From NCBI GenBank assembly GCA_001778495.1, contig MFHE01000010.1, forward strand, positions 1 through 53,291: 53,291 nucleotides of DNA, written 5' to 3'. The position numbers and the translations under genes are program-made. The notes below the pieces were generated by a model, which was given only the letters and a program-made list of their open reading frames with translations, ran no database searches and was not told where the DNA came from. Source of the DNA: Candidatus Giovannonibacteria bacterium RIFCSPHIGHO2_01_FULL_45_24. GTDB taxonomy: Bacteria; Patescibacteriota; Minisyncoccia; UBA11713; 2-01-FULL-45-33. Numbering within the stretch: position 1 is the stretch's first letter; each line of letters opens with the position of its first letter. Shown one piece after another: positions 6,740-29,772 of this stretch.

Positions 6740-7419
6740 TATTTCGTATCAATAATTATAGTAAATTCTCCTCTTTGGCGCTCGCCCGTGAAGTGTTTTT
6801 GGGCTTCGGATAATTTGCCCCTGAAAATTTCTTCGTGAAGCTTTGTCAGCTCCCTGCCGATGTTTACATATCTATCGCCATTGGCCACTTCCAGCTCACG
6901 CAGAGTTTTTTGTACGCGGTGGGGCGACTCAAAAATAATTACCGGCATATTTATCTTGGCAACACGCCCGAAAAATGTCTGCCGGCCTTTTTTGCGCGGA
7001 GGGAAACCCAAAAAAATAAAATTACTTAAATCGATGTCGCTGGCGGACACTATAGCTGAAAGCGCCGAGGGCCCCGGGATCGGTATCACGGAAGCCGAGC
7101 TTCCACTTGGAAGTTCGGCTTCCAAGTAAGCGATGAGTTTGCGGCCCGGGTCGGAAATGCCCGGAGTTCCTGCGTCAGTGACTAGCGCCAAATTTTTGTT
7201 TTCTTTGATTAAATTTAGAATTTTTTCTAAAATTTTTGGAGATGAATGCTCTCGAAAAGAAATCGTCGGCTTGGAAATCCCGAGATGCGCCAGCAATTTT
7301 CTGGTTACTCTTGTGTCTTCAGCTAAAACAACATCAACTGATTTTAACGTTTCTATCGCGCGGAGCGTGACGTCTTTTAAATTCCCGATGGGCGTGGCTA
7401 CGATAAAGAGCTTTGGCAT
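6739..7419 (-). CDS. rsmI: 16S rRNA 2'-O-ribose C1402 methyltransferase (tetrapyrrole-methylase fold)
   Basis: Track ORF 6739..7539 trimmed to MPKLFIVATPIGNLKDVTLRA (ATG at 7419). DAGTPGISDPG and PGPSA motifs present. Confidence 0.88.
   Translation of the reverse strand: MPKLFIVATPIGNLKDVTLRAIETLKSVDVVLAEDTRVTRKLLAHLGISKPTISFREHSSPKILEKILNLIKENKNLALVTDAGTPGISDPGRKLIAYLEAELPSGSSASVIPIPGPSALSAIVSASDIDLSNFIFLGFPPRKKGRQTFFGRVAKINMPVIIFESPHRVQKTLRELEVANGDRYVNIGRELTKLHEEIFRGKLSEAQKHFTGERQRGEFTIIIDTK
7090..7127. repeat. REP-like palindromic element, about 1.5 copies, in-frame inside rsmI
   Basis: GGAAGCCGAGCTTCC (7090-7104) plus ACTTGGAAG-TTCGG-CTTCCAAGT (7105-7127). Translated in rsmI as LEAELPSGSSAS. 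Confidence 0.8.
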
Positions 7420-9930: not shown

Positions 9931-10158
9931 TTACTGCGCGAGTTCTTTTTCTATGTCCGAAAGCTCGGCGTCAAGGTTATTCAAATCAGTGGCGTTGAGG
10001 TCCGCCTCTATGGATTGGGTCGTGTCCGACGGCGGAAAAATTCCGTAATCGCCTGTTTCCACAGGAGCGTAGCTTAAGTAGTAAACCAAAAACGCGGCGA
10101 CAACCAAAACTGCTATGATTCCCGCTACCCACCAGCCCAAATGTCTATTTTCTTCCAT
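9931..10158 (-). CDS. Small membrane-anchored acidic protein (75 aa)
   Basis: Track ORF with one TM helix (WWVAGIIAVLVVAAFLVYYL). Confidence 0.6.
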   Translation of the reverse strand: MEENRHLGWWVAGIIAVLVVAAFLVYYLSYAPVETGDYGIFPPSDTTQSIEADLNATDLNNLDAELSDIEKELAQ

Positions 10159-10170
10159 ATGCTTTAAATT

Positions 10171-10788
10171 TTATCTTGAAGAAGTTGAAGTGGCCTCGTT
10201 GCCGAGCCGCAATCCTTTAATTGAATTTACCACGCCAACCAACGCCCGGTGCGCTTCTTTTATTTTTTGCGCCACGCCCTGCACTAAAGTTTTTACTTGC
10301 CTGAACGATTCTTTGGGGTTTTGGCTGTTAGTCATCTCTTTAAACTTCGCTTTCGCGTCGCTTAACGCCGTTTCAGCGGCGGAGATTTTATCCCGCGCGG
10401 ATTTCAACTGGTCTTTTATTTTGGAAACATCGTGGCCCGCCTCTTCCGATTTTTGGAGGCGCGACTCAATTCGGTCAGCCAAGCCGTTTAGGCGGTCAAT
10501 GGCGTTTTCAAACTTCCGAACCATCTGATTGAAAAATTGCTCAATCCTTTTTGCTCTTTCCTCGCCGACTCTTTTTTTCAGGGCGTTTATTCTTTGCTCT
10601 GCTTCTTTTTTGAAAGTTTCGCGCTTTGTTTTGGCCTCAAGCATCTGGGTCTGCCGCTTTTGTTGGGCTTCCTGCTTAATATTTTGGCGCTCCACGCGCA
10701 CATTTGCGTTTTCTTCCGCAAAAACCAAAATTGGCGCTATCAGCATAGCCCCGGTTATTAAAACGTGTTTTAAGTGCGGTTTAGCCAT
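10171..10788 (-). CDS. Secreted coiled-coil protein (205 aa)
   Basis: N-terminal signal/TM segment, then Lys/Glu/Gln-rich heptad-like sequence. Confidence 0.7.
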   Translation of the reverse strand: MAKPHLKHVLITGAMLIAPILVFAEENANVRVERQNIKQEAQQKRQTQMLEAKTKRETFKKEAEQRINALKKRVGEERAKRIEQFFNQMVRKFENAIDRLNGLADRIESRLQKSEEAGHDVSKIKDQLKSARDKISAAETALSDAKAKFKEMTNSQNPKESFRQVKTLVQGVAQKIKEAHRALVGVVNSIKGLRLGNEATSTSSR

Positions 10789-16884: not shown

Positions 16885-19536
16885 TTATTTCTTCTCTAAA
16901 TTTTTGCGGTGCTCCCCCGTTCCTAACAAGCCACAACGTTTATACTTCTTTCCAGAACCGCACCAGCAGGGGTCATTGCGGCCCAGTTCGTCCTTTTTGT
17001 CAAAAGTTGAACTTCTGACATTTTGTTTAAATTCATTCGCAGGAGCGGGGCCGATTTTAAAAATCAAATTAGCGATGTAGGCGTTGATATGCCCTTCCAG
17101 CTGCTGGAACATTTTTGCGCCCTCGTTTTTGTATTCTACCAAAGCAACCCTTTGGCCGTAAACGCGAAGTTGTACGCTGGAACGCATGTATTCCATCGCC
17201 TCCAGATGCTCCATCCAAAGAGCGTCAATCGCCTGGAGCATGATTACGCGAAGCGCGTCGGCAAACCCCGCAACCTCCTTTTTTTGCTTGACGAATGCCG
17301 TTTCAATTTCTTTCTCCGCGAGCTCGGCCAGCTCTTCCATGCTTTCCATTTTCCCAACTCGCTCGCGGATATTAGAGAAATCTCCGCCGCCCAAAATGCT
17401 CGCCAAATTCTCCCCAATCTCTTTTTTGTTCCATTCTTCCGGCGAGCCCATGGTGTGTGCCTGGATAATCCTGCTCGCCACTTCTTTAAGCAAAGCCAAC
17501 GCCTCCTCCTCTATTTCTTCGGGCTTCGCGAAAAGCAGTTTTTTTCTCCGTGAATAAATCGCCGCCCTCTGCTTATTCATCACGTCGTCATACTCCAAAA
17601 CATGCTTTCTAGTGTCAAAGTTAAATCCCTCAATTTTCCCCTGCGCGGACTCAATCGCCCCCGACACCATTTTGTTTTCCACTGGCTCGTCTTCCGGAAT
17701 GCCGAGCTTGCCCATTAAATTTTTCACCCTCTCCGGCGCGAAAATTCGCATAAGGTCATCCTCCAAAGAAACAAAAAATTGCGTCCCGCCCGGGTCGCCC
17801 TGCCTGCCGGCTCTGCCCCGAAGCTGGTCGTCTATGCGGCGCGCTTCGTGCCGCTCCGTGCCGATGACAAGCAATCCGCCCACACTCCTGACTCTCTCGG
17901 CGTCTTCGGAAACCGCCGGGTTTCCTCCGAGAATTATGTCCACTCCCCGGCCGGCCATGTTGGTCGCGACGGTCACGGCCCTGAATCTCCCCGCCTGCGC
18001 GATAATCGCTCCTTCCTCCTCGTGATTTTTAGCGTTCAGCACTTTGTGTTCTACGCCTTCGCGCGAGAGGAGCGCGGAAAGTTTTTCATTTTTTTCAATT
18101 GAAACAGTGCCAATAAGCACGGGCTGGCCTTTTTCGTTTCTTGCTTTTATTTCGCGCGAGAGAGCTTGCCATTTCCCTTTTTCCGTCTGGAAAACTTTGT
18201 CCGGCAAATCGTTTCTTACCATGGGCTTATTCGTCGGGATCTCGGTGACATCCAAATTATATACTTTGTGGAATTCCTCGGCGGAAGTTTGCGCCGTGCC
18301 CGTCATCCCGGCCAGCTTTTTATACATCCTGAAATAATTTTGGAAAGTAATTGTCGCAAGCGTGCGGGATTCCTGCTGGACCCGCGCGCCTTCTTTGGCC
18401 TCAATGGCCTGGTGGAGCCCGTCCGACCACCTTCGCCCGGGCATCAAGCGACCGGTAAATTCATCAACAATGGTTACTTCCCCATTTTTTACGACATAAT
18501 CTTTGTCGCGCTGAAAAAGAGCGTGGGCGCGAAGCGCCTGCTCCAGATGATGCACATATCTCATCCCGCGCTCGGTGTAGATGTCTTTAAGCCCGAGCAT
18601 CTGCTCCACTTTTTCAATTCCGGATTCGGTCACGAGCGCCGTTTTCATTTTCTCATCAATATTATAATCCTCGTTTTCTTTAAGCCGCAGGACGATTCTT
18701 GAAAAAACTTTGTAAAGCTCGGCGGATTCGGCATCAGGAGTTGAGATAATCAACGGCGTCCGCGCTTCATCAATTAAAATTGAATCAACCTCGTCAACAA
18801 TCGCGAAATTGTGGCCGCGCTGGGCCATCTGGCTCGGAGCGTAAACCATATTGTCGCGCAGATAATCAAACCCGTACTCGTTGTTCGTCCCATAAGTGAC
18901 GTCGGCGGCGTATGCTTCGCGCCGGGGGCAGGGACGCAAAAATTCGTGAACAACTTTAAAAGCGCCCAATGTGTCGCGGGCTTGGTCTTTGGCGGTTAAA
19001 CCGCCATTTGGCGGTTTAACCGCCAAGTTCGCATCATATAAGTAACTTGCTTCATGATTCAAAACCCCCACGGATAACCCCAGCGCATTATATATCTGCC
19101 CCATCCAAACGGCGTCCCTCCGCGACAGATAGTCGTTGACCGTCACAATATGAACGCCTCCACCAGCTGGCGGGGCCGGAAGCGCGTTGATATAAGCCGG
19201 CAAAGTCGCAACTAAAGTTTTCCCTTCTCCGGTCTTCATCTCCGCGATTCCTCCTCTGTGGAGCACAATCCCGCCCATAAGCTGGGCGTCAAAATGCCTC
19301 TGGCCCAAAGTTCTTTTGGCGGCATCTCTTACGACGGCAAATGCTTCGGGAAGAATTTCATCAAGCCACGCGCCGTCCTCCAACCGTTTTCTGAATTCCG
19401 CTGTTTTATTTTTTAGTTCCTCATCAGAAAGTTTTTGGACTCCATTTTCCAGATTGTTTATTTCTTCAACAATCGGCCGGAGCTCGTCTACGGCTCTTTC
19501 ATTTGAGCCCCCAAAAATTTTCCCAAAAAATGACAT
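16885..19536 (-). CDS. secA: Preprotein translocase ATPase SecA
   Basis: 883 aa. MKTGEGKTLV Walker A, VDEVDSILIDEARTPLIIS DEAD-like motif, C-terminal zinc motif CWCGSGKKYKRC. Confidence 0.98.
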   Translation of the reverse strand: MSFFGKIFGGSNERAVDELRPIVEEINNLENGVQKLSDEELKNKTAEFRKRLEDGAWLDEILPEAFAVVRDAAKRTLGQRHFDAQLMGGIVLHRGGIAEMKTGEGKTLVATLPAYINALPAPPAGGGVHIVTVNDYLSRRDAVWMGQIYNALGLSVGVLNHEASYLYDANLAVKPPNGGLTAKDQARDTLGAFKVVHEFLRPCPRREAYAADVTYGTNNEYGFDYLRDNMVYAPSQMAQRGHNFAIVDEVDSILIDEARTPLIISTPDAESAELYKVFSRIVLRLKENEDYNIDEKMKTALVTESGIEKVEQMLGLKDIYTERGMRYVHHLEQALRAHALFQRDKDYVVKNGEVTIVDEFTGRLMPGRRWSDGLHQAIEAKEGARVQQESRTLATITFQNYFRMYKKLAGMTGTAQTSAEEFHKVYNLDVTEIPTNKPMVRNDLPDKVFQTEKGKWQALSREIKARNEKGQPVLIGTVSIEKNEKLSALLSREGVEHKVLNAKNHEEEGAIIAQAGRFRAVTVATNMAGRGVDIILGGNPAVSEDAERVRSVGGLLVIGTERHEARRIDDQLRGRAGRQGDPGGTQFFVSLEDDLMRIFAPERVKNLMGKLGIPEDEPVENKMVSGAIESAQGKIEGFNFDTRKHVLEYDDVMNKQRAAIYSRRKKLLFAKPEEIEEEALALLKEVASRIIQAHTMGSPEEWNKKEIGENLASILGGGDFSNIRERVGKMESMEELAELAEKEIETAFVKQKKEVAGFADALRVIMLQAIDALWMEHLEAMEYMRSSVQLRVYGQRVALVEYKNEGAKMFQQLEGHINAYIANLIFKIGPAPANEFKQNVRSSTFDKKDELGRNDPCWCGSGKKYKRCGLLGTGEHRKNLEKK
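18989..19026. repeat. 38-bp nested palindrome inside secA
   Basis: ttggcggttaaaccgcca-tt-tggcggtttaaccgccaa gives 18 perfect mirror pairs. Each half also contains GGCGG-N5-CCGCC. Translated as LAVKPPNGGLTAK. Confidence 0.85.
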
Positions 19537-20669: not shown

Positions 20670-20751
20670 AAAACAACACAAAGCCCTGGAAATTCCAGGG
20701 CTTTGTGCAGACATAGATTGCAGTCCCGCCGAGGCGGGACAACACTCACAT
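20668..20751 (-). ncRNA. Candidate ~85-nt sRNA or attenuator leader: two hairpins, the second terminator-like
   Basis: Hairpin gtcccgcc-gag-gcgggac (20723-20740). Hairpin aaagccctggaa/ttccagggcttt (20680-20704) is followed on the minus strand by GUGUUGUUUU. Sits directly downstream of the 20758-20785 promoter. Confidence 0.4.
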
Positions 20752-20786: not shown

Positions 20787-21794
20787 TTATTTATCCACAA
20801 AGCGGCTGTAGTAGCCCCTGTCCGCTTTAAGCGCCTCGCGGCCGGTGTATTGGTACTTAAATCCATAGTTTGTAATTTTTGAGCCGTCAACGATAATCGG
20901 GTAAGTGTAAGAATTGATGCCCGCCGGGACCGTTGGAATCCTCCCCCGCGAAAGGTGCCACAGCGCGCCGAAACAGAGTTTCCCCAGCCGCATCGGCACT
21001 CTTATTGAGAGCTTGCCGATTTCTTTCGCCATATCTTTCAGCAAAAAGAAGTCGGCTGGGGCGATGTTGAATATCTCGTATTTTGAAGATGCACCTCCGC
21101 CGGCCATAAACCGGACGGCATCCCAAATATCGTCTTCGTGAACAAACTGCCTCGCGGAATCCGGCCCGGTGACGGGCACAACCGGGAGGCCGAATTTCAT
21201 CGCACGCAGAAGCCCGAAGCGCTTGAACGCAAACTGACCCCGTGGACCCGTGATGGCGCAGGGGCGGAACACCAAAACCTGCGTCGCGGAAAACGCATAA
21301 AACGCGGCTTTTAGTTTTTCTTCAATTATTTTCTTATCCACGCCGTAAAGATACTTCTCCTCGCGGAAAGAGTCTGATTCTTTGAATTTATAGTTCGTGG
21401 AATTCTCGGGAAGCGCGCCATAAGAAGCAACGGTTGAAAAATGTATGAGCCGCGGTATTTTGTTTTTTGAAACAAAATCAAAAACCCTCTCCGCCGCCGT
21501 AACATTAGATTTTATCTGCCATGCCCTTTTTTTGCCGTAGCCCTCGCGGATGACATAAGCGCAGTGTATCACCAAATCCGGCCTGCCCTCGGCCAAAACT
21601 TTTTCTTCCCAGCCGGGGTCGCCAAGATTGTGCTGTACAAAAGCAATCCGATTGCTACTTAGCAATCGGATTGCTAAGTTGGATGGAGCCTTCATATCCA
21701 AAGCGATTATTTTTTCAACTTCCGGATTTTCATCAAAGCGGTCAGCGAGCATCCCGCCTATGTATCCCGACGTTCCGGTTATAAAAATTTTCAT
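20787..21794 (-). CDS. NAD-dependent epimerase/dehydratase (SDR) family protein
   Basis: 335 aa with MKIFITGTSGYIGG Rossmann motif. Confidence 0.85.
   Translation of the reverse strand: MKIFITGTSGYIGGMLADRFDENPEVEKIIALDMKAPSNLAIRLLSSNRIAFVQHNLGDPGWEEKVLAEGRPDLVIHCAYVIREGYGKKRAWQIKSNVTAAERVFDFVSKNKIPRLIHFSTVASYGALPENSTNYKFKESDSFREEKYLYGVDKKIIEEKLKAAFYAFSATQVLVFRPCAITGPRGQFAFKRFGLLRAMKFGLPVVPVTGPDSARQFVHEDDIWDAVRFMAGGGASSKYEIFNIAPADFFLLKDMAKEIGKLSIRVPMRLGKLCFGALWHLSRGRIPTVPAGINSYTYPIIVDGSKITNYGFKYQYTGREALKADRGYYSRFVDK
20791..20799 (+). promoter_or_regulatory. Perfect DnaA-box 9-mer (TTATCCACA on plus strand) within the last codons of the epimerase gene
   Basis: Read directly from the sequence. 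Confidence 0.3.
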
Positions 21795-26622: not shown

Positions 26623-28881
26623 TTATCGAGGATTTCTCCCCGCCCTTACTTCCTCTATAAAATACTCCCCTTGCTCCTTAAATTGAGGATTGAGCTCTAT
26701 GGCCTTTTGAAGCTCTTTTATGGCATTTTGACGCTCTCCCAGCTGCATATAAGTTGCCGCCAGATTCACGCGGTATTGGGCGTTTCCGGGTTCCTGTTTT
26801 ATATAAAGCAGCCAGATATCGCGTACTTTTTTATAGTTCCCCACTCTGGCGTAAGCGGTAAGCAGGTTTTGGTCGGCGACTATCCCGTTTTTAAAAACTT
26901 TAGATAAAATTTCTTCAGCGTATCCTTCGTTTTTATTGAGTATGGCAACCAAAGCCAGGTTTTTCACGGATTCCCCGTAAGTCGGGTCAAGGTCGTAGGC
27001 CTCCTGCAAAATTTCCAGCGCTTTGTTGTTGTCCCCTTTCGTGATATTCGCGTCAGCCAGTAAAAAATAAATTTGCTGTTTTTGGGGCGACAATTCACGC
27101 GCCTTTGTGAGGGTTTTCAGCGCGTCGTCAATCCGCCCGATTTTCAAATAAAGCGCCGAAAGAAAAAGATGTGCTCTTGCGTCTTTTGGATTCTCCGCGG
27201 CCTGACGCTCCATTTCAACAATGGCTTTCTGCGCCGCCTTAACTTTGAGCTCCATCGGGACGTTAAATCCTGCGATTTTGTTTGCGTAGCCGGCGAGCTG
27301 TTCTCTGGCTTCCCCGTTGCCAAAAGTCTTAAGCTCAAACACCCTGTCAAAATCCGCTAAAACTTTGTCAACGTTTCCGGAATCCGTCGCCATGCCCTTC
27401 AGCGCATCAAGCAACCTTTGGTTTGCAAAAAGCGGTTTAAAATTCAGGAAGTAGAGAGAAAACAAAACCGCGATAAAAATAAAAATTACGGCGACGTATT
27501 TAGCAAAAAAAACTTCCGCGCCTGAACGGTTGCCCAGCTCTTTGAAACCGGGTTTTGAGACTTCCAAAAAACCCGGTTTCTTGCCGCTGGGCGAAGCCAA
27601 AAATTGGACGAACCCCAAAACGGAGAAAAAAATGAAATAGGAAGTAAGGTTGTCAAAAACAAAAAGATTGTGAAAAAAATAAGCGGCGAAAAGCGAGGTG
27701 AAAGCGGCTGTGGCAAATTTATCCGATTGATTTTTCCAAAGCGTGTAAATCGCCGCGGCGAAAATCCCCAGATAAGCAATCAGCCCAAGCGCCCCGCCCT
27801 GCGCCAGCCAGTCAAAAAATACGTTGTGGGCTCTGTCAAACCACGGCTCCTGTGGCCACAACCTGGCCTTATAGTACTTATTGAAGACAAGATTAAAATT
27901 TTCAAGTCCTACTCCCAAAACAGGATGTTCCTTGAACCCATCCAGCGCCATACCCCAGATGGTAAGGCGCGATTTCACGGTCTGCTCCTGGGGGGAGATG
28001 TCTGCAAATCTCTTAAGCACGTAGTTTTTGTCTACAAAACTTGTATTTTTGAGGGCAAAAAACACGCCCGCCAAAATCACAACGACCCCGATTACGCCAA
28101 ACGCTAAAATTTTTGATTTGCGGCTTCTTTCAATAAAAGCCAATAAAAGACCGAAGAGCGCCGTGCCTCCCATAAGGCCGATGATTGCCCCGCGCGTAGC
28201 GGTTAAAAATACGATTGGCACTTCCATAATAAGCACGAACGCCAAAATGCTCCGTATCCAAATTCTTTCTTCCCCGAAAAAGTAATAGGCGAGCAGAAAA
28301 AGATGAAATACTAGGTAAATGGCAAGATAAGTAGAATTGCCGAGCGTCGCGTCCAGCCGGACATCGGATTGGTGGATTTCCAATCTCCCCATAAACTGCA
28401 GGTATGAATAAGCCGTGATTATGAAACTCACCGCGATGCCCGAATAAAAAAATCTCCGCCAGTCCGTTTGCGATTTAAAAACGCCGATGAGCATTATAAA
28501 ATACGCAAAAAGGTGAAGATGCCCCAGAAGCCCTTCCATGCGCTCGTAGTTTGACCAAAAGCTGCGGTAAGGATTTGCTCCCAAAACCGTGGACAAAATC
28601 AAAACGGACATAGTAGCCGCAACCGCCCAAAAAATTGGAGATGGCCTGGGGCGATATTTTTTATCAAAAATGGCCGCAGTTGCCCAAAGGGCGAATAAAA
28701 TCTCAACCGCCATTCTGAAAAAAAAGTTTTTTCCGGTGATGAACGGGAAAAATAAATCACCGACTCCAGGAAGCAAAACATTGGCAAAAAAATTTCCGCC
28801 CACAATCAGCGTAGCTGCCGGCAAAACGCAAAGCCCGACTTTGATTATTCTAACAATGATGTCTATTGTTTTTTGCGACAT
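26623..28881 (-). CDS. O-antigen ligase/polymerase-like (Wzy_C) membrane protein fused to C-terminal TPR repeats
   Basis: 752 aa, about 12 TM helices, then about 7 TPR-like repeats (...ALELNPQF...). Confidence 0.78.
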   Translation of the reverse strand: MSQKTIDIIVRIIKVGLCVLPAATLIVGGNFFANVLLPGVGDLFFPFITGKNFFFRMAVEILFALWATAAIFDKKYRPRPSPIFWAVAATMSVLILSTVLGANPYRSFWSNYERMEGLLGHLHLFAYFIMLIGVFKSQTDWRRFFYSGIAVSFIITAYSYLQFMGRLEIHQSDVRLDATLGNSTYLAIYLVFHLFLLAYYFFGEERIWIRSILAFVLIMEVPIVFLTATRGAIIGLMGGTALFGLLLAFIERSRKSKILAFGVIGVVVILAGVFFALKNTSFVDKNYVLKRFADISPQEQTVKSRLTIWGMALDGFKEHPVLGVGLENFNLVFNKYYKARLWPQEPWFDRAHNVFFDWLAQGGALGLIAYLGIFAAAIYTLWKNQSDKFATAAFTSLFAAYFFHNLFVFDNLTSYFIFFSVLGFVQFLASPSGKKPGFLEVSKPGFKELGNRSGAEVFFAKYVAVIFIFIAVLFSLYFLNFKPLFANQRLLDALKGMATDSGNVDKVLADFDRVFELKTFGNGEAREQLAGYANKIAGFNVPMELKVKAAQKAIVEMERQAAENPKDARAHLFLSALYLKIGRIDDALKTLTKARELSPQKQQIYFLLADANITKGDNNKALEILQEAYDLDPTYGESVKNLALVAILNKNEGYAEEILSKVFKNGIVADQNLLTAYARVGNYKKVRDIWLLYIKQEPGNAQYRVNLAATYMQLGERQNAIKELQKAIELNPQFKEQGEYFIEEVRAGRNPR

Positions 28882-29049
28882 GGTTTAAATAATAACAAAA
28901 GCAAAACCCAAGGCAAGGGAAAAGAAAAAGGCCCGGGGTTGAGAGATTCGTCGCGTAGTTAGTCCGTCTGTCCAGCTTGGATCTGGTTTTTCTGTTTTTG
29001 CTGGCTCCTCGATTTTTGTCAAGCGCGCGTGGTAATGCTCTGCCCGGCA

Positions 29050-29076
29050 GCACTTGGAAGCCGGACTTCCAAGTGC
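29050..29076 (+). repeat. REP-like perfect hairpin, left flank
   Basis: GCACTTGGAAG-CCGGA-CTTCCAAGTGC: 11-bp arms and a 5-nt loop. Confidence 0.9.
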
Positions 29077-29088
29077 TAATATGGCAAT

Positions 29089-29733
29089 ATGAGAAAAGAA
29101 GTATTTGCCGTTGGCAAATTTTATCATATCTACAACCGCGGGACTGATAAGCGAAAGATTTTCCTAGATAAATACGACTTTGAGCGATTCCTGCAAAGCA
29201 TGCAAGAATTTAATACGCTAGAACCAATAGGTAGTATTTATGAAAATTCTTTCGTAAAAGATCAACTTGGGAGTTCGGCTTCCAAGCAACGCAAATTAGT
29301 AAATTGCGTGGCTTATTGCCTTAATCCAAATCACTATCATTTTATTCTTCAGCAAACCAAAGAAAGAGGCGTAGAAAAATTTATGCAAAGACTCGGCACT
29401 GGTTTTACAAACTATTTTAATAATAAATACCACCGCAGTGGAGTATTGTTTCAGGGCAAATTTAAATCTCGCCATATTGACTCCAATGAGTATCTTTTAC
29501 ATATAAGCGCTTATGTAAATTTAAACGACCGCATCCACCGATTTGGGAGTTCGGCTTCCAAGTCGAGTTGGATAGAGTATGTAGAAAAACAAAAAGGGAT
29601 TTGTGAGAAAAAAATAATCCTAGATCAATTTGGAAACGTTGCGGAGTATAAAGCTTTTGCGGAAAGCTCGCTCAAAGACATATTGGCACGCAAACAACTT
29701 TACAAAGAGCTGGAAATATTACTGTTTGATTAA
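29089..29733 (+). CDS. HUH/Y1 single-strand DNA transposase, IS200-like / REP-associated (RAYT-like)
   Basis: 214 aa. N-terminal FYHIYNRG, HUH motif NPNHYHFIL, C-terminal Tyr region (EYLLHISAYVNLN). Confidence 0.78.
   Translation: MRKEVFAVGKFYHIYNRGTDKRKIFLDKYDFERFLQSMQEFNTLEPIGSIYENSFVKDQLGSSASKQRKLVNCVAYCLNPNHYHFILQQTKERGVEKFMQRLGTGFTNYFNNKYHRSGVLFQGKFKSRHIDSNEYLLHISAYVNLNDRIHRFGSSASKSSWIEYVEKQKGICEKKIILDQFGNVAEYKAFAESSLKDILARKQLYKELEILLFD
29266..29286 (+). repeat. REP-like hairpin copy inside the transposase ORF (internal copy 1)
   Basis: CTTGGGAG-TTCGG-CTTCCAAG, translated as LGSSASK. Confidence 0.85.
29543..29563 (+). repeat. REP-like hairpin copy inside the transposase ORF (internal copy 2)
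   Basis: TTGGGAG-TTCGG-CTTCCAAGT; 29542-29562 matches copy 1 at 20 of 21 positions. Translated as FGSSASK. Confidence 0.85.
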
Positions 29734-29772
29734 CTTGGAAGCCGGACTTCCAAGTGCATCTTCCAAGTGCAT
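29733..29772 (+). repeat. REP-like hairpin, right flank, plus a 13-nt tandem duplication
   Basis: ACTTGGAAG-CCGGA-CTTCCAAGTGC (29733-29757) starts in the TAA stop codon. CTTCCAAGTGCAT occurs twice (29747-29759, 29760-29772). Confidence 0.9.

Follow-up and report, generated by a model that had tools for sequence, protein, structure and literature searches.

Hairpins matching the flanking palindromes lie in frame at two loop sites of a Y1/HUH transposase gene family in Patescibacteria

Introduction

How repetitive extragenic palindromic sequences (REPs), and the REP doublets that form hairpins (REPINs), are copied by REP-associated tyrosine transposases (RAYTs), and how a repeat and its enzyme remain matched, are unresolved questions of the field. 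Here, a RAYT-like transposase gene of the Y1/HUH type is described together with four hairpins of one kind, one on either side of the gene and two within its reading frame. The gene lies on a contig of 53,291 nucleotides (nt) from Candidatus Giovannonibacteria bacterium RIFCSPHIGHO2_01_FULL_45_24 (MFHE01000010.1 of assembly GCA_001778495.1; hereafter the window). Throughout the family to which it belongs, internal hairpins occupy the same two coding sites and mostly share their type with the flanks of their own locus.

In-frame REPs inside the transposase gene itself are already known. Quentin et al. (2018; PMC6006769) report them for tnpAREP subclass 2.4 (group 4 of the RAYTs in Bertels et al., 2017), where they occupy peripheral loops and were interpreted as tolerated; a preliminary description of the window, made from its letters, was thus mistaken in its premise that no REP/RAYT system with its substrate inside the transposase open reading frame (ORF) had been described. 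In subclass 2.4, which is hosted by Cyanobacteria and Bacteroidetes, the insertions lie between the HuH motif and the catalytic tyrosine, the HuH-Y distance is enlarged and variable (median 88 amino acids [aa]), and there is no C-terminal extension (PMC6006769).

Escherichia coli TnpAREP with its REPs, the REPtron (4ER8; Messing et al, 2012, PMC3479197; Ton-Hoang et al, 2012), is a single-copy, vertically inherited gene under purifying selection, whose repeats, found outside genes in hundreds of copies, have a bulged stem and require a 5′ GTAG. REPINs (Bertels & Rainey, 2011, PMC3116915) are likewise extragenic and abundant, with one transposase per repeat type. TnpA of the IS200/IS605 group (IS608, ISDra2, IS200) has the Y1 HUH fold and serves units of ∼0.7 kb with distinct left and right ends on the same strand. 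Rickettsia palindromic elements and intragenic REPs (Di Nocera et al, 2013, PMC3733652), finally, are short in-frame palindromes, often dimers, in the loops of housekeeping proteins and absent from orthologues.

Results

A transposase gene with four copies of one hairpin

The 214-aa ORF in question (Table 1) carries the motifs YHIYNRG, HYH and SAYVNLN. On either side of it stands the same perfect hairpin, whose 21-nt sequence CTTGGAAGCCGGACTTCCAAG lies at 29053-29073 and 29734-29754; folded as single-stranded DNA (ssDNA), the upstream hairpin reaches −13.5 kcal/mol (z −7.0) and the downstream one −9.1 kcal/mol (z −5.4). Both internal copies reported in the preliminary description were recovered with the positions and sequences given there. 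They agree with each other at 20 of 21 positions, and each differs from the flank hairpin, taken in reverse complement, at two positions, one of which gives a G·T pair on the plus strand. In the reading frame of the gene, both encode (L/F)GSSASK; they are spaced 276 nt (92 codons) apart, copy 1 preceding the HUH motif (H82, H84) and copy 2 following Tyr142, again as had been described. Both are imperfect, and their ssDNA folds are weak (−4.9 and −6.0 kcal/mol; z −1.6 and −2.2). Five matches to the hairpin were observed in the window, the fifth at 7106-7126, compared with none in 100 dinucleotide-preserving shuffles.

An AlphaFold2 (AF2) model of the protein, with a predicted local distance difference test score (pLDDT) of 81.8, places both encoded peptides in low-confidence surface loops. 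The pLDDT is below 50 around copy 1 (residues 52-65) and ∼65 around copy 2; these regions are sites 1 and 2 of the family (see below).

Table 1. Coordinates of the transposase gene, its hairpins and related repeats in the window.
Feature	Position	Strand	Remarks
Y1/HUH transposase gene, 214 aa	29089..29733	+	Pfam Y1_Tnp, 4ER8 fold match, dN/dS 0.09
HUH motif H82-Y-H84	29332..29340	+	N81, H82, H84 invariant columns (alignment A1)
Catalytic-type Tyr Y142 (SAYVNLN)	29512..29514	+	Y142, N144, N146 invariant; on model helix 133-149
Upstream flank hairpin AGCACTTGGAAG.ccgga.CTTCCAAGTGCT, 12-bp perfect stem	29049..29077	.	centre 26 nt before ATG
Promoter-like layout on upstream hairpin: −35-like TTGGAA 29054-59, 17-nt spacer, TG 29074-75, −10 TAATAT 29077-82	29054..29082	+	ATG 6 nt on
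Internal copy 1 CTTGGGAGTTCGGCTTCCAAG, LGSSASK, residues 60-66	29266..29286	+	loop between helix 28-40 and strand 71-78
Internal copy 2 TTTGGGAGTTCGGCTTCCAAG, FGSSASK, residues 152-158	29542..29562	+	loop directly after Tyr helix
Downstream flank hairpin ACTTGGAAG.ccgga.CTTCCAAGT	29733..29755	.	begins at last base of TAA stop
13-nt tandem duplication CTTCCAAGTGCAT x2 (downstream hairpin right arm + 5 nt)	29747..29772	+	not in orthologue
RsmI REPIN-like doublet GGAAGCCGAGCTTCC.actt.GGAAGTTCGGCTTCC, in frame as LEAELPSGSSAS, variable loop	7090..7126	−	fold −15.6 kcal/mol, z −6.6
SecA in-frame doublet TTGGCGGTTAAACCGCC.attt.GGCGGTTTAACCGCCAA, 17-bp arms, read LAVKPPNGGLTAK, DEAD-like domain	18989-19026 (gene 16885..19536)	−	
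NAD-dependent epimerase in-frame doublet AGCAATCCGATTGCT.actt.AGCAATCGGATTGCT, 15-bp arms	21642-21675 (gene 20787..21794)	−	third type, resembles flank of locus L017
Wzy_C/TPR gene palindrome GAACCGGGTTTT-type (GAAACCGGGTTTT, 11-nt spacer, AAAACCCGGTTTC)	27544-27580 (gene 26623..28881)	−	

Pfam Y1_Tnp (PF01797) matches the protein with 28.3 bits (cutoff 23; E 2e-6), and H82, H84 and Y142 are invariant in a 36-member alignment of the family (alignment A1), in keeping with the Y1 HUH superfamily, whose members combine an HUH metal-binding motif with one catalytic Tyr on a later helix in an RRM-like fold. The AF2 model matches 4ER8 and the TnpA proteins of IS608 and ISDra2. The top PDB entry of the fold search was 4ER8, the E. 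coli TnpAREP-REP complex (Foldseek E 5e-6; TM score 0.64 on the target), with IS608 and ISDra2 TnpA ranking after it. Only the fold search gave this link: a sequence-profile search against PDB sequences returned no match for the transposase, and NCBIfam REP_Tyr_transpos scored 33.7 bits, far under its curated cutoff of 80, which leaves the protein outside the RAYT family by sequence. Judged by this score, the transposase is a divergent clade relative to the NCBIfam RAYT model. Its HuH-Y distance is 60 aa, and 72 residues follow Y142 as a C-terminal extension, which in the AF2 model includes a long helix (184-213).

A syntenic orthologue was found at 10001-10645 of locus L081, in the complete 651-kb genome CP066687 (Ca. 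Giovannonibacteria). The two transposases are 93% identical in aa sequence, with a synonymous divergence (dS) of 0.41 and a ratio of nonsynonymous to synonymous divergence (dN/dS) of 0.09; for the neighbouring genes, dS was 0.75 and 0.44, dN/dS 0.14 and 0.18, and aa identity 81% and 86%, and RsmI, at 80% aa identity, was also less conserved than the transposase. In this one genome pair, the transposase thus has the sequence characteristics of a vertically inherited gene under housekeeping-like constraint. Copy 1 is identical in the orthologue, and copy 2 differs there by 6 of 21 nt in a single patch (CTTGGAAGCCGAGCTTCCAAG), set in DNA of ∼92% identity (column mean of alignment A2). The 13-nt duplication at the downstream hairpin (Table 1) may be a footprint of slippage or aberrant joining.

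The upstream hairpin coincides with a promoter-like layout (Table 1). Over 21 loci of the family with the modal spacing, the consensus reads CCAAGTGnTAnnAT, 6 nt and ATG, that is, an extended −10 element follows directly on the right arm, and TTGGnn of the left arm supplies a −35-like hexamer 17 nt upstream. In the window itself, a generic sigma-70 scanner called no promoter upstream of the gene (8 of 12 hexamer positions match). The upstream hairpin is unchanged in the CP066687 orthologue, where promoter and hairpins are fully conserved (for copy 2, see above) despite the remainder of the upstream spacer being unalignable. The family logo suggests that the upstream hairpin is built into the promoter, and the transposase mRNA is probably leaderless.

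A word-indexed search returned 3,791 relatives of the protein at E ≤ 1e-5, and an exhaustive search 260 clusters at 50% identity and E < 1e-30. The named relatives are all Patescibacteria (e.g., Giovannonibacteria, Moranbacteria and Paceibacterota). In six distant relatives (P0312, P0313, P0328, P0331, P0336 and P0352), site 1 is expanded by 30-50 aa of low-complexity, internally repetitive sequence, and site 2 carries the canonical RAYT motif W.WSSY; the site-1 expansions are possibly accumulated, decayed repeat insertions.

Internal hairpins are position-fixed and follow the flanks throughout the family

For 80 homologous loci with flanks from reference genomes, hairpins were sought at the two aligned sites and in 110 nt on each side; occupancy was counted over 72 loci of Patescibacteria. 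A core was defined as 5 nt, the loop and another 5 nt, and a match as at most one mismatch. One or both sites held a palindrome in 64 of the 72 loci (89%): both sites in 28, site 1 only in 20 and site 2 only in 16. The segments, for which the preliminary description had envisaged lineage-specific inserts, are thus a family-wide feature of fixed position. In the remaining eight loci, the genes are intact and the flanks mostly so.

The internal core matched the flank of its own locus in 69 of 87 cases, compared with 24 of 1,637 (1.5%) when random other loci were taken, and 101 distinct hairpin cores were distinguished among the loci. Upstream and downstream hairpins were identical in 37 of 55 loci. 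When the flank core was sought throughout its own gene, matches were confined to codons ∼57-72 and ∼146-161. In alignment A1, both segments read LGxxxSK, and the variable residues change together at the two sites (e.g., GHRVSK/GHRVSK, GGKASK/GGKASK and RGSTSK/RGSTSK). The same co-variation extends to very different stems, as in locus L070, where ATAGTAGACAT.ccg.ATGTCTACTAT stands at four positions, and in L031, L063, L075 and L069. Homologues thus have other residues and other palindromes, each matching its own flanks, so the palindromes derive from the repeat and are not an ancestral peptide that happens to be palindromic, as the preliminary description had also maintained. Its proposed refutation, by homologues with the same residues in non-palindromic codons, thereby failed. 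Paralogues within one assembly each carry their own hairpin type (L009/L033, L027/L029 and L003/L066); as in a REPtron, each gene is flanked by its own cognate palindromes, one type per gene.

The modal upstream spacing in the family is 26 nt, and the modal downstream position is directly past the stop codon. Inside the gene, the palindrome centre falls on the middle base of a codon in 45 of 48 hairpins at site 1 and in all 42 at site 2, and this constant phase argues for continuity of two sites, not repeated random insertion. The idea that all four hairpins keep the frame of the ORF, which a few loci had suggested, was rejected for the whole set: the phase bias of the upstream copy merely reflects the fixed 26-nt spacing, and the downstream copy has no clear phase preference.

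Among 150 diverse representatives, no deletion variant running from hairpin to hairpin (such as a loss of the 276-nt core) was found; truncated proteins have other breakpoints. Three mosaic loci (L005, L007 and L018) suggest that hairpin-bounded modules may be shuffled between paralogues.

The copies at a locus change in concert

Closely related loci point to the manner in which the copies are kept alike. L018 and L019, whose proteins are 79% identical, have near-identical DNA around both sites but wholly unlike 11-nt cores, bounded by TTGG and CCAA. L027 and L029, two loci of one metagenome-assembled genome, differ by a compensated change of G:C to C:G in the upstream and site-2 copies alike. 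In the window, the two internal copies share both the G·T defect and the loop, suggesting that one arose as a copy of the other, and the copy-2 variant of the CP066687 orthologue, GGAAGCCGAGCTTCC, is the palindrome of the window's RsmI gene. The internal hairpins have the outer sequence CAACTTGG..CCAAGTTG, often extended to VHQLG..SKLV with stems of up to 18 bp, and the flanks CCACTTGG..CCAAGTGG (CACTTGG..CCAAGTG). Since internal copies keep an outer sequence of their own, an inner unit appears to be exchanged and not a whole element pasted. That the copies at a locus are kept alike by copying, and not by parallel or independent mutation, is the best-supported explanation of these sequence patterns.

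About 72% of the stems in the family are perfect. Loop orientation is random relative to the gene and to the flanks, and upstream and downstream loops have the same orientation in 20 loci and are inverted in 20. Within the ORF, orientations encoding a stop or a bulky hydrophobic residue are avoided (TCA 11 : TGA 0; TTA 9 : TAA 0; GAA 7 : TTC 1).

Related hairpins lie in frame in other genes

Outside transposase genes, family-like hairpins were found eight times in 204 kb of flanking DNA (∼1 per 25 kb). Five of the eight were of the type of the neighbouring transposase, and three lay inside ORFs of at least 200 aa. In locus L032, LigA carries the hairpin of the neighbouring transposase, read LGSSTPK. 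A DNA-uptake sequence, considered as a candidate, was ruled out by this density, the locus-specific variants, and the tie to the Y1 transposase gene.

In the other 52 kb of the window, the flank hairpin family occurs at one locus. ACTT- or ATTT-centred doublets, or related inserts, are present in four host genes of the window (Table 1). The insert in RsmI amounts to 6 aa relative to solved RsmI structures and does not occur in the CP066687 orthologue (P0123); diverged related inserts stand at the same place in P0122, P0124 and P0125. The palindrome of the Wzy_C/TPR gene encodes part of a 15-aa insert (KKPGFLEVSKPGFKE), which the CP066687 orthologue also lacks. The hairpin type of SecA, GGCGGT.taa.ACCGCC, flanks the transposase genes in L007 and L029, which points to another hairpin family in the genome of the window, perhaps with a further transposase encoded elsewhere.

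The exact flank 23-mer was found on 19 metagenome contigs, three of which are transposase loci and 16 not. Its non-transposase copies lie mostly in long ORFs, often as a doublet encoding LEAGLPSGSPAS: LepA, a class-I aminoacyl-tRNA synthetase, TsaD, QueA and a large surface protein. In LepA from two metagenomes (1539-1579 of L088 and 1975-2015 of L095), the 41-nt doublet is identical and the flanking DNA ∼75% identical. The doublet lies in a loop after the motif IPPP; at this loop, other LepA homologues have doublets of other hairpin variants, and most have none (a few percent are occupied). Like the sites in the transposase gene, the LepA loop (proteins P0455 and P0394 included) looks like a persistent site with a changing hairpin. 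In-frame palindromes in protein loops that are absent from close orthologues are thus found in RsmI, the Wzy gene and LepA.

Comparison with described systems

With subclass 2.4, the family shares a Y1/HUH gene with cognate flanking palindromes and frame-preserving internal copies. It differs in those features of the subclass that were tested, as far as these are described: the two fixed sites lie outside the HuH-Y interval (60-66 before H82; 152-158 after Y142), the HuH-Y distance of the window transposase is not enlarged and a C-terminal extension is present (see above), the hosts are Patescibacteria, phyla absent from that survey, and the hairpins are minimal perfect palindromes of 21-23 nt that lack the 5′ GT[AG]G foot. 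The flank consensus, CCACTTGG...CCAAGTG(G), has its GTGG at the 3′ side, where it pairs with CCAC. For four-way co-variation of internal and flanking copies, no mention was found in Quentin et al. (2018; PMC6006769), and neither this, nor a fusion of promoter and hairpin, nor fixed “sockets” were found in the literature searched.

The best structural match is to E. coli TnpAREP, and the HUH and Tyr motifs, the cognate flanking hairpins and the signs of single-copy, vertical inheritance under purifying selection are held in common, although sequence similarity is weak by the NCBIfam and PDB profile searches given above. Unlike the E. coli repeats, those of the family have perfect stems and a foot of the form CCAC...GTGG, occur at ∼1 per 25 kb, and are intragenic in many copies. 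The family resembles IS200/IS605 in its Y1 HUH fold, a unit of ∼0.7 kb and subterminal hairpins that border the ORF on both sides. Unlike IS200/IS605, it shows no identical multi-copy elements, co-resident paralogues being divergent (closest pair 76%) and each having its own hairpin; the window locus is syntenic between genomes at dS 0.41; and left and right ends are the same palindrome in random relative orientation.

The in-frame doublets in housekeeping loops recall Rickettsia palindromic elements and intragenic REPs, from which they differ in their shorter units (21-23-nt singlets and ∼40-nt doublets), in being tied to the Y1 transposase family that hosts them, and in residing in the ultra-small genomes of Patescibacteria. 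The inverted doublets of RsmI, SecA, the epimerase and LepA fold as one long hairpin, as do REPINs; unlike REPINs, the repeats occur in few copies, many of them coding, and stand as singlets at and in the transposase gene. In these gene-dense genomes, the repeats survive largely as in-frame inserts (SecA, LepA, RsmI, LigA, TsaD and QueA), a point that bears on how Candidate Phyla Radiation genomes are annotated and how their proteins evolve.

Discussion

Probably tolerated hairpins and a proposed copy-replacement

With moderate confidence, we read the internal segments as cognate REP-like hairpins in two ancestral permissive loops, which would be matched to the flanks by copy-replacement and be mostly tolerated passengers. 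The locus would then be a minimal REPtron, in which a RAYT-like Y1/HUH ssDNA transposase has a cognate hairpin on each side, the upstream one doubling as the −35, spacer and TG part of the promoter and the other placed directly past the stop codon. The two surface loops would have been occupied since early in this Patescibacteria family. Copy-replacement, a form of concerted evolution, would keep the copies of a locus alike and make flank and internal types switch together; the enzyme might cut and rejoin DNA at the feet of the hairpins, or strands might switch on hairpin templates in replication or repair. Random loop orientation and tract ends at the shared outer stem fit both routes alike. 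Selection at the protein level would filter only orientation and frame, so that stops are excluded and small or hydrophilic residues favoured. The internal copies would be by-products of the element's own hairpin propagation, which would also seed the loops of housekeeping genes, often with doublets.

Several observations agree with this reading. The co-variation of internal and flanking cores, the palindromy at the nucleotide level and the eight loci that do without internal hairpins all support it. The fold and motifs are, by analogy, those of TnpAREP and IS200 enzymes that bind and cut such hairpins (PMC3479197). Tolerance of flexible Gly/Ser linkers, one of three ideas in the preliminary description, accommodates the data best, the segments lying in low-confidence loops of the AF2 model and the same hairpins occurring in frame in loops of housekeeping genes. 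Passenger status would also correspond to what Quentin et al. (2018) proposed for subclass 2.4 and, by the same analogy, to the intragenic REPs of Di Nocera et al. (2013).

Other observations weigh against it. Occupancy in the transposase gene, at two constant sites and in constant phase, is 89%, compared with a few percent of LepA homologues, and persistence over >50% protein divergence could mean that the internal copies are selected. Not one synonymous site of copy 1 differs between the orthologues, although their dS is 0.41. The internal copies are singlets, whereas those in host genes are often doublets, and their outer stems (CAACTTGG..CCAAGTTG versus CACTTGG..CCAAGTG) show that they are not simple pasted copies. 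The embedding of the upstream copy in the promoter, as the family logo suggests it, argues for more than passenger status. The copying mechanism, moreover, is one that we infer entirely from sequence.

Possible template switching without the enzyme

Copying might also need no transposase. Template switching among nearby hairpins during replication (quasi-palindrome correction) could keep stems perfect, flip loops and copy cores among the four sites. The replaced tracts end at the shared outer stem (TTGG...CCAA) and leave site-specific outer sequence in place, loop orientation is random, including that of upstream versus downstream loops, and the proportion of perfect stems is high; all this would be expected of such a process, as would the slippage-type 13-nt duplication at the downstream hairpin and the local nature of homogenisation, which stays within the locus even where other hairpin types are present in the genome. 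However, template switching leaves unexplained why hairpins have persisted for so long at exactly two coding sites, and why in some loci (L070, L031 and L063) wholly different hairpins, outer stems included, stand at all sites. The identical 41-nt LepA doublets in different organisms, set in flanks of ∼75% identity, suggest active spread instead. Enzyme-free homogenisation is therefore regarded as possible, if on balance unlikely.

Possible self-regulation and internal substrates

If, instead, the internal hairpins are under selection, the enzyme might bind, or cut and reseal, hairpins in its own gene while this is single-stranded in replication or transcription and, together with the promoter hairpin, thereby exert negative feedback, with all four sites kept matched; a self-limiting arrangement was also among the three ideas of the preliminary description. 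Very high occupancy and constant position and phase would be accounted for, and so would the retention of hairpins across a family of 260 clusters and the fact that the internal type follows its own flanks even beside a paralogue of another type in the same genome. A conserved extended −10 promoter coincides with the upstream hairpin, so self-repression by a protein that binds this hairpin is conceivable, and E. coli TnpAREP has been described as auto-inhibited and down-regulated (PMC3479197). The low dN/dS of 0.09 and the 100% conservation of hairpins between orthologues at dS 0.41 also fit, though copy 2 differs at 6 of 21 nt. Against this, internal hairpins are absent from eight loci and only single in 36, with intact genes and most flanks kept; orientation is random; the internal copies of the window are degraded and barely fold; and LepA, where self-regulation is impossible as a cause, shows the same persistence of a site with variant hairpins. 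Binding itself would have to be conjectured by analogy. It is because of occupancy, constant site and phase, deep persistence and promoter embedding that self-regulation is given a distinct but low probability.

In a related, rather doubtful proposal, the internal hairpins would be functional substrates, with the transposase recognising, and possibly excising or replacing, 23-nt cassettes at fixed sockets in its own ORF and promoter. If so, the specificity of the enzyme, its promoter and two parts of its coding sequence would co-evolve as a self-referential, expression-limiting unit, and replacement of one REP by another (cassette conversion) by a RAYT could be read from nature for the first time in this family. 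Independently of the reading preferred, hundreds of loci with three or four minimal perfect hairpins at fixed, alignable positions (promoter, two coding loops and stop codon), and some hundred variants swapped in concert, make the tempo and tract boundaries of repeat replacement directly measurable and supply defined oligonucleotide substrates for biochemistry.

Palindromy is a property of the DNA rather than of peptide or RNA

The palindromy of the internal segments is at the nucleotide level and symmetric in the DNA. When their peptides were back-translated by synonymous resampling with the codon usage of the family, 3.8 paired bases resulted on average, compared with 10.6 observed, and p was below 0.05 for 89 of 91 hairpins. 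Codon choice inside the hairpins departs from that elsewhere in the genes (Lys AAG 70% versus 27.5%; Leu CTT 57% versus 21%; Ser TCC 27% versus 6%) because of the base pairing. Chance or codon bias as the source of the palindromes was ruled out by the shuffles, the permutation against other loci and this resampling.

A role of the hairpins as mRNA structures that slow translation or set the stability of the transposase mRNA, the former having been among the three ideas of the preliminary description, is very improbable. In-ORF stems of 10-18 bp would form in the transcript in either orientation, and the window copies keep a G·U-compatible pair on the sense strand. In the family, however, sense-strand G·T is no more favoured than A·C (site 1, 4 G·T and 5 A·C; site 2, 2 and 1), loop orientation is random and palindromy symmetric at the DNA level, the internal sequence tracks non-transcribed or flanking copies, which RNA function would not require, and an Rfam search matched no known RNA family. 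That the encoded 7-aa peptides are themselves functional, for example as DNA-contacting loops, with palindromy secondary, is hardly credible: site 1 does follow helix αB and site 2 the Tyr helix, and in E. coli TnpAREP, αB/αC and the C-terminal segment contact REP hairpin and foot (PMC3479197), but the peptide is wholly different where the hairpin differs (LGSSASK versus NSRHRMSTI, CGGPTAT or NGHPVSI), base pairing dictates codon choice, both loops are of low confidence in the model, and eight loci dispense with the hairpins in them.

Other features of the window

A perfect 14-bp palindrome, CACAAAGCCCTGGA.aat.TCCAGGGCTTTGTG, at 20677-20707, lies downstream of the epimerase gene, in a short spacer, and is unrelated in sequence to the transposase hairpin. 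A tRNA-Val(CAC) gene was located at 2899-2972 on the minus strand. On the same strand, positions 1-1725 hold the 5′ part of a 23S rRNA gene, in which 1,725 nt correspond to model positions 1-1316, which implies insertions of ∼400 nt.

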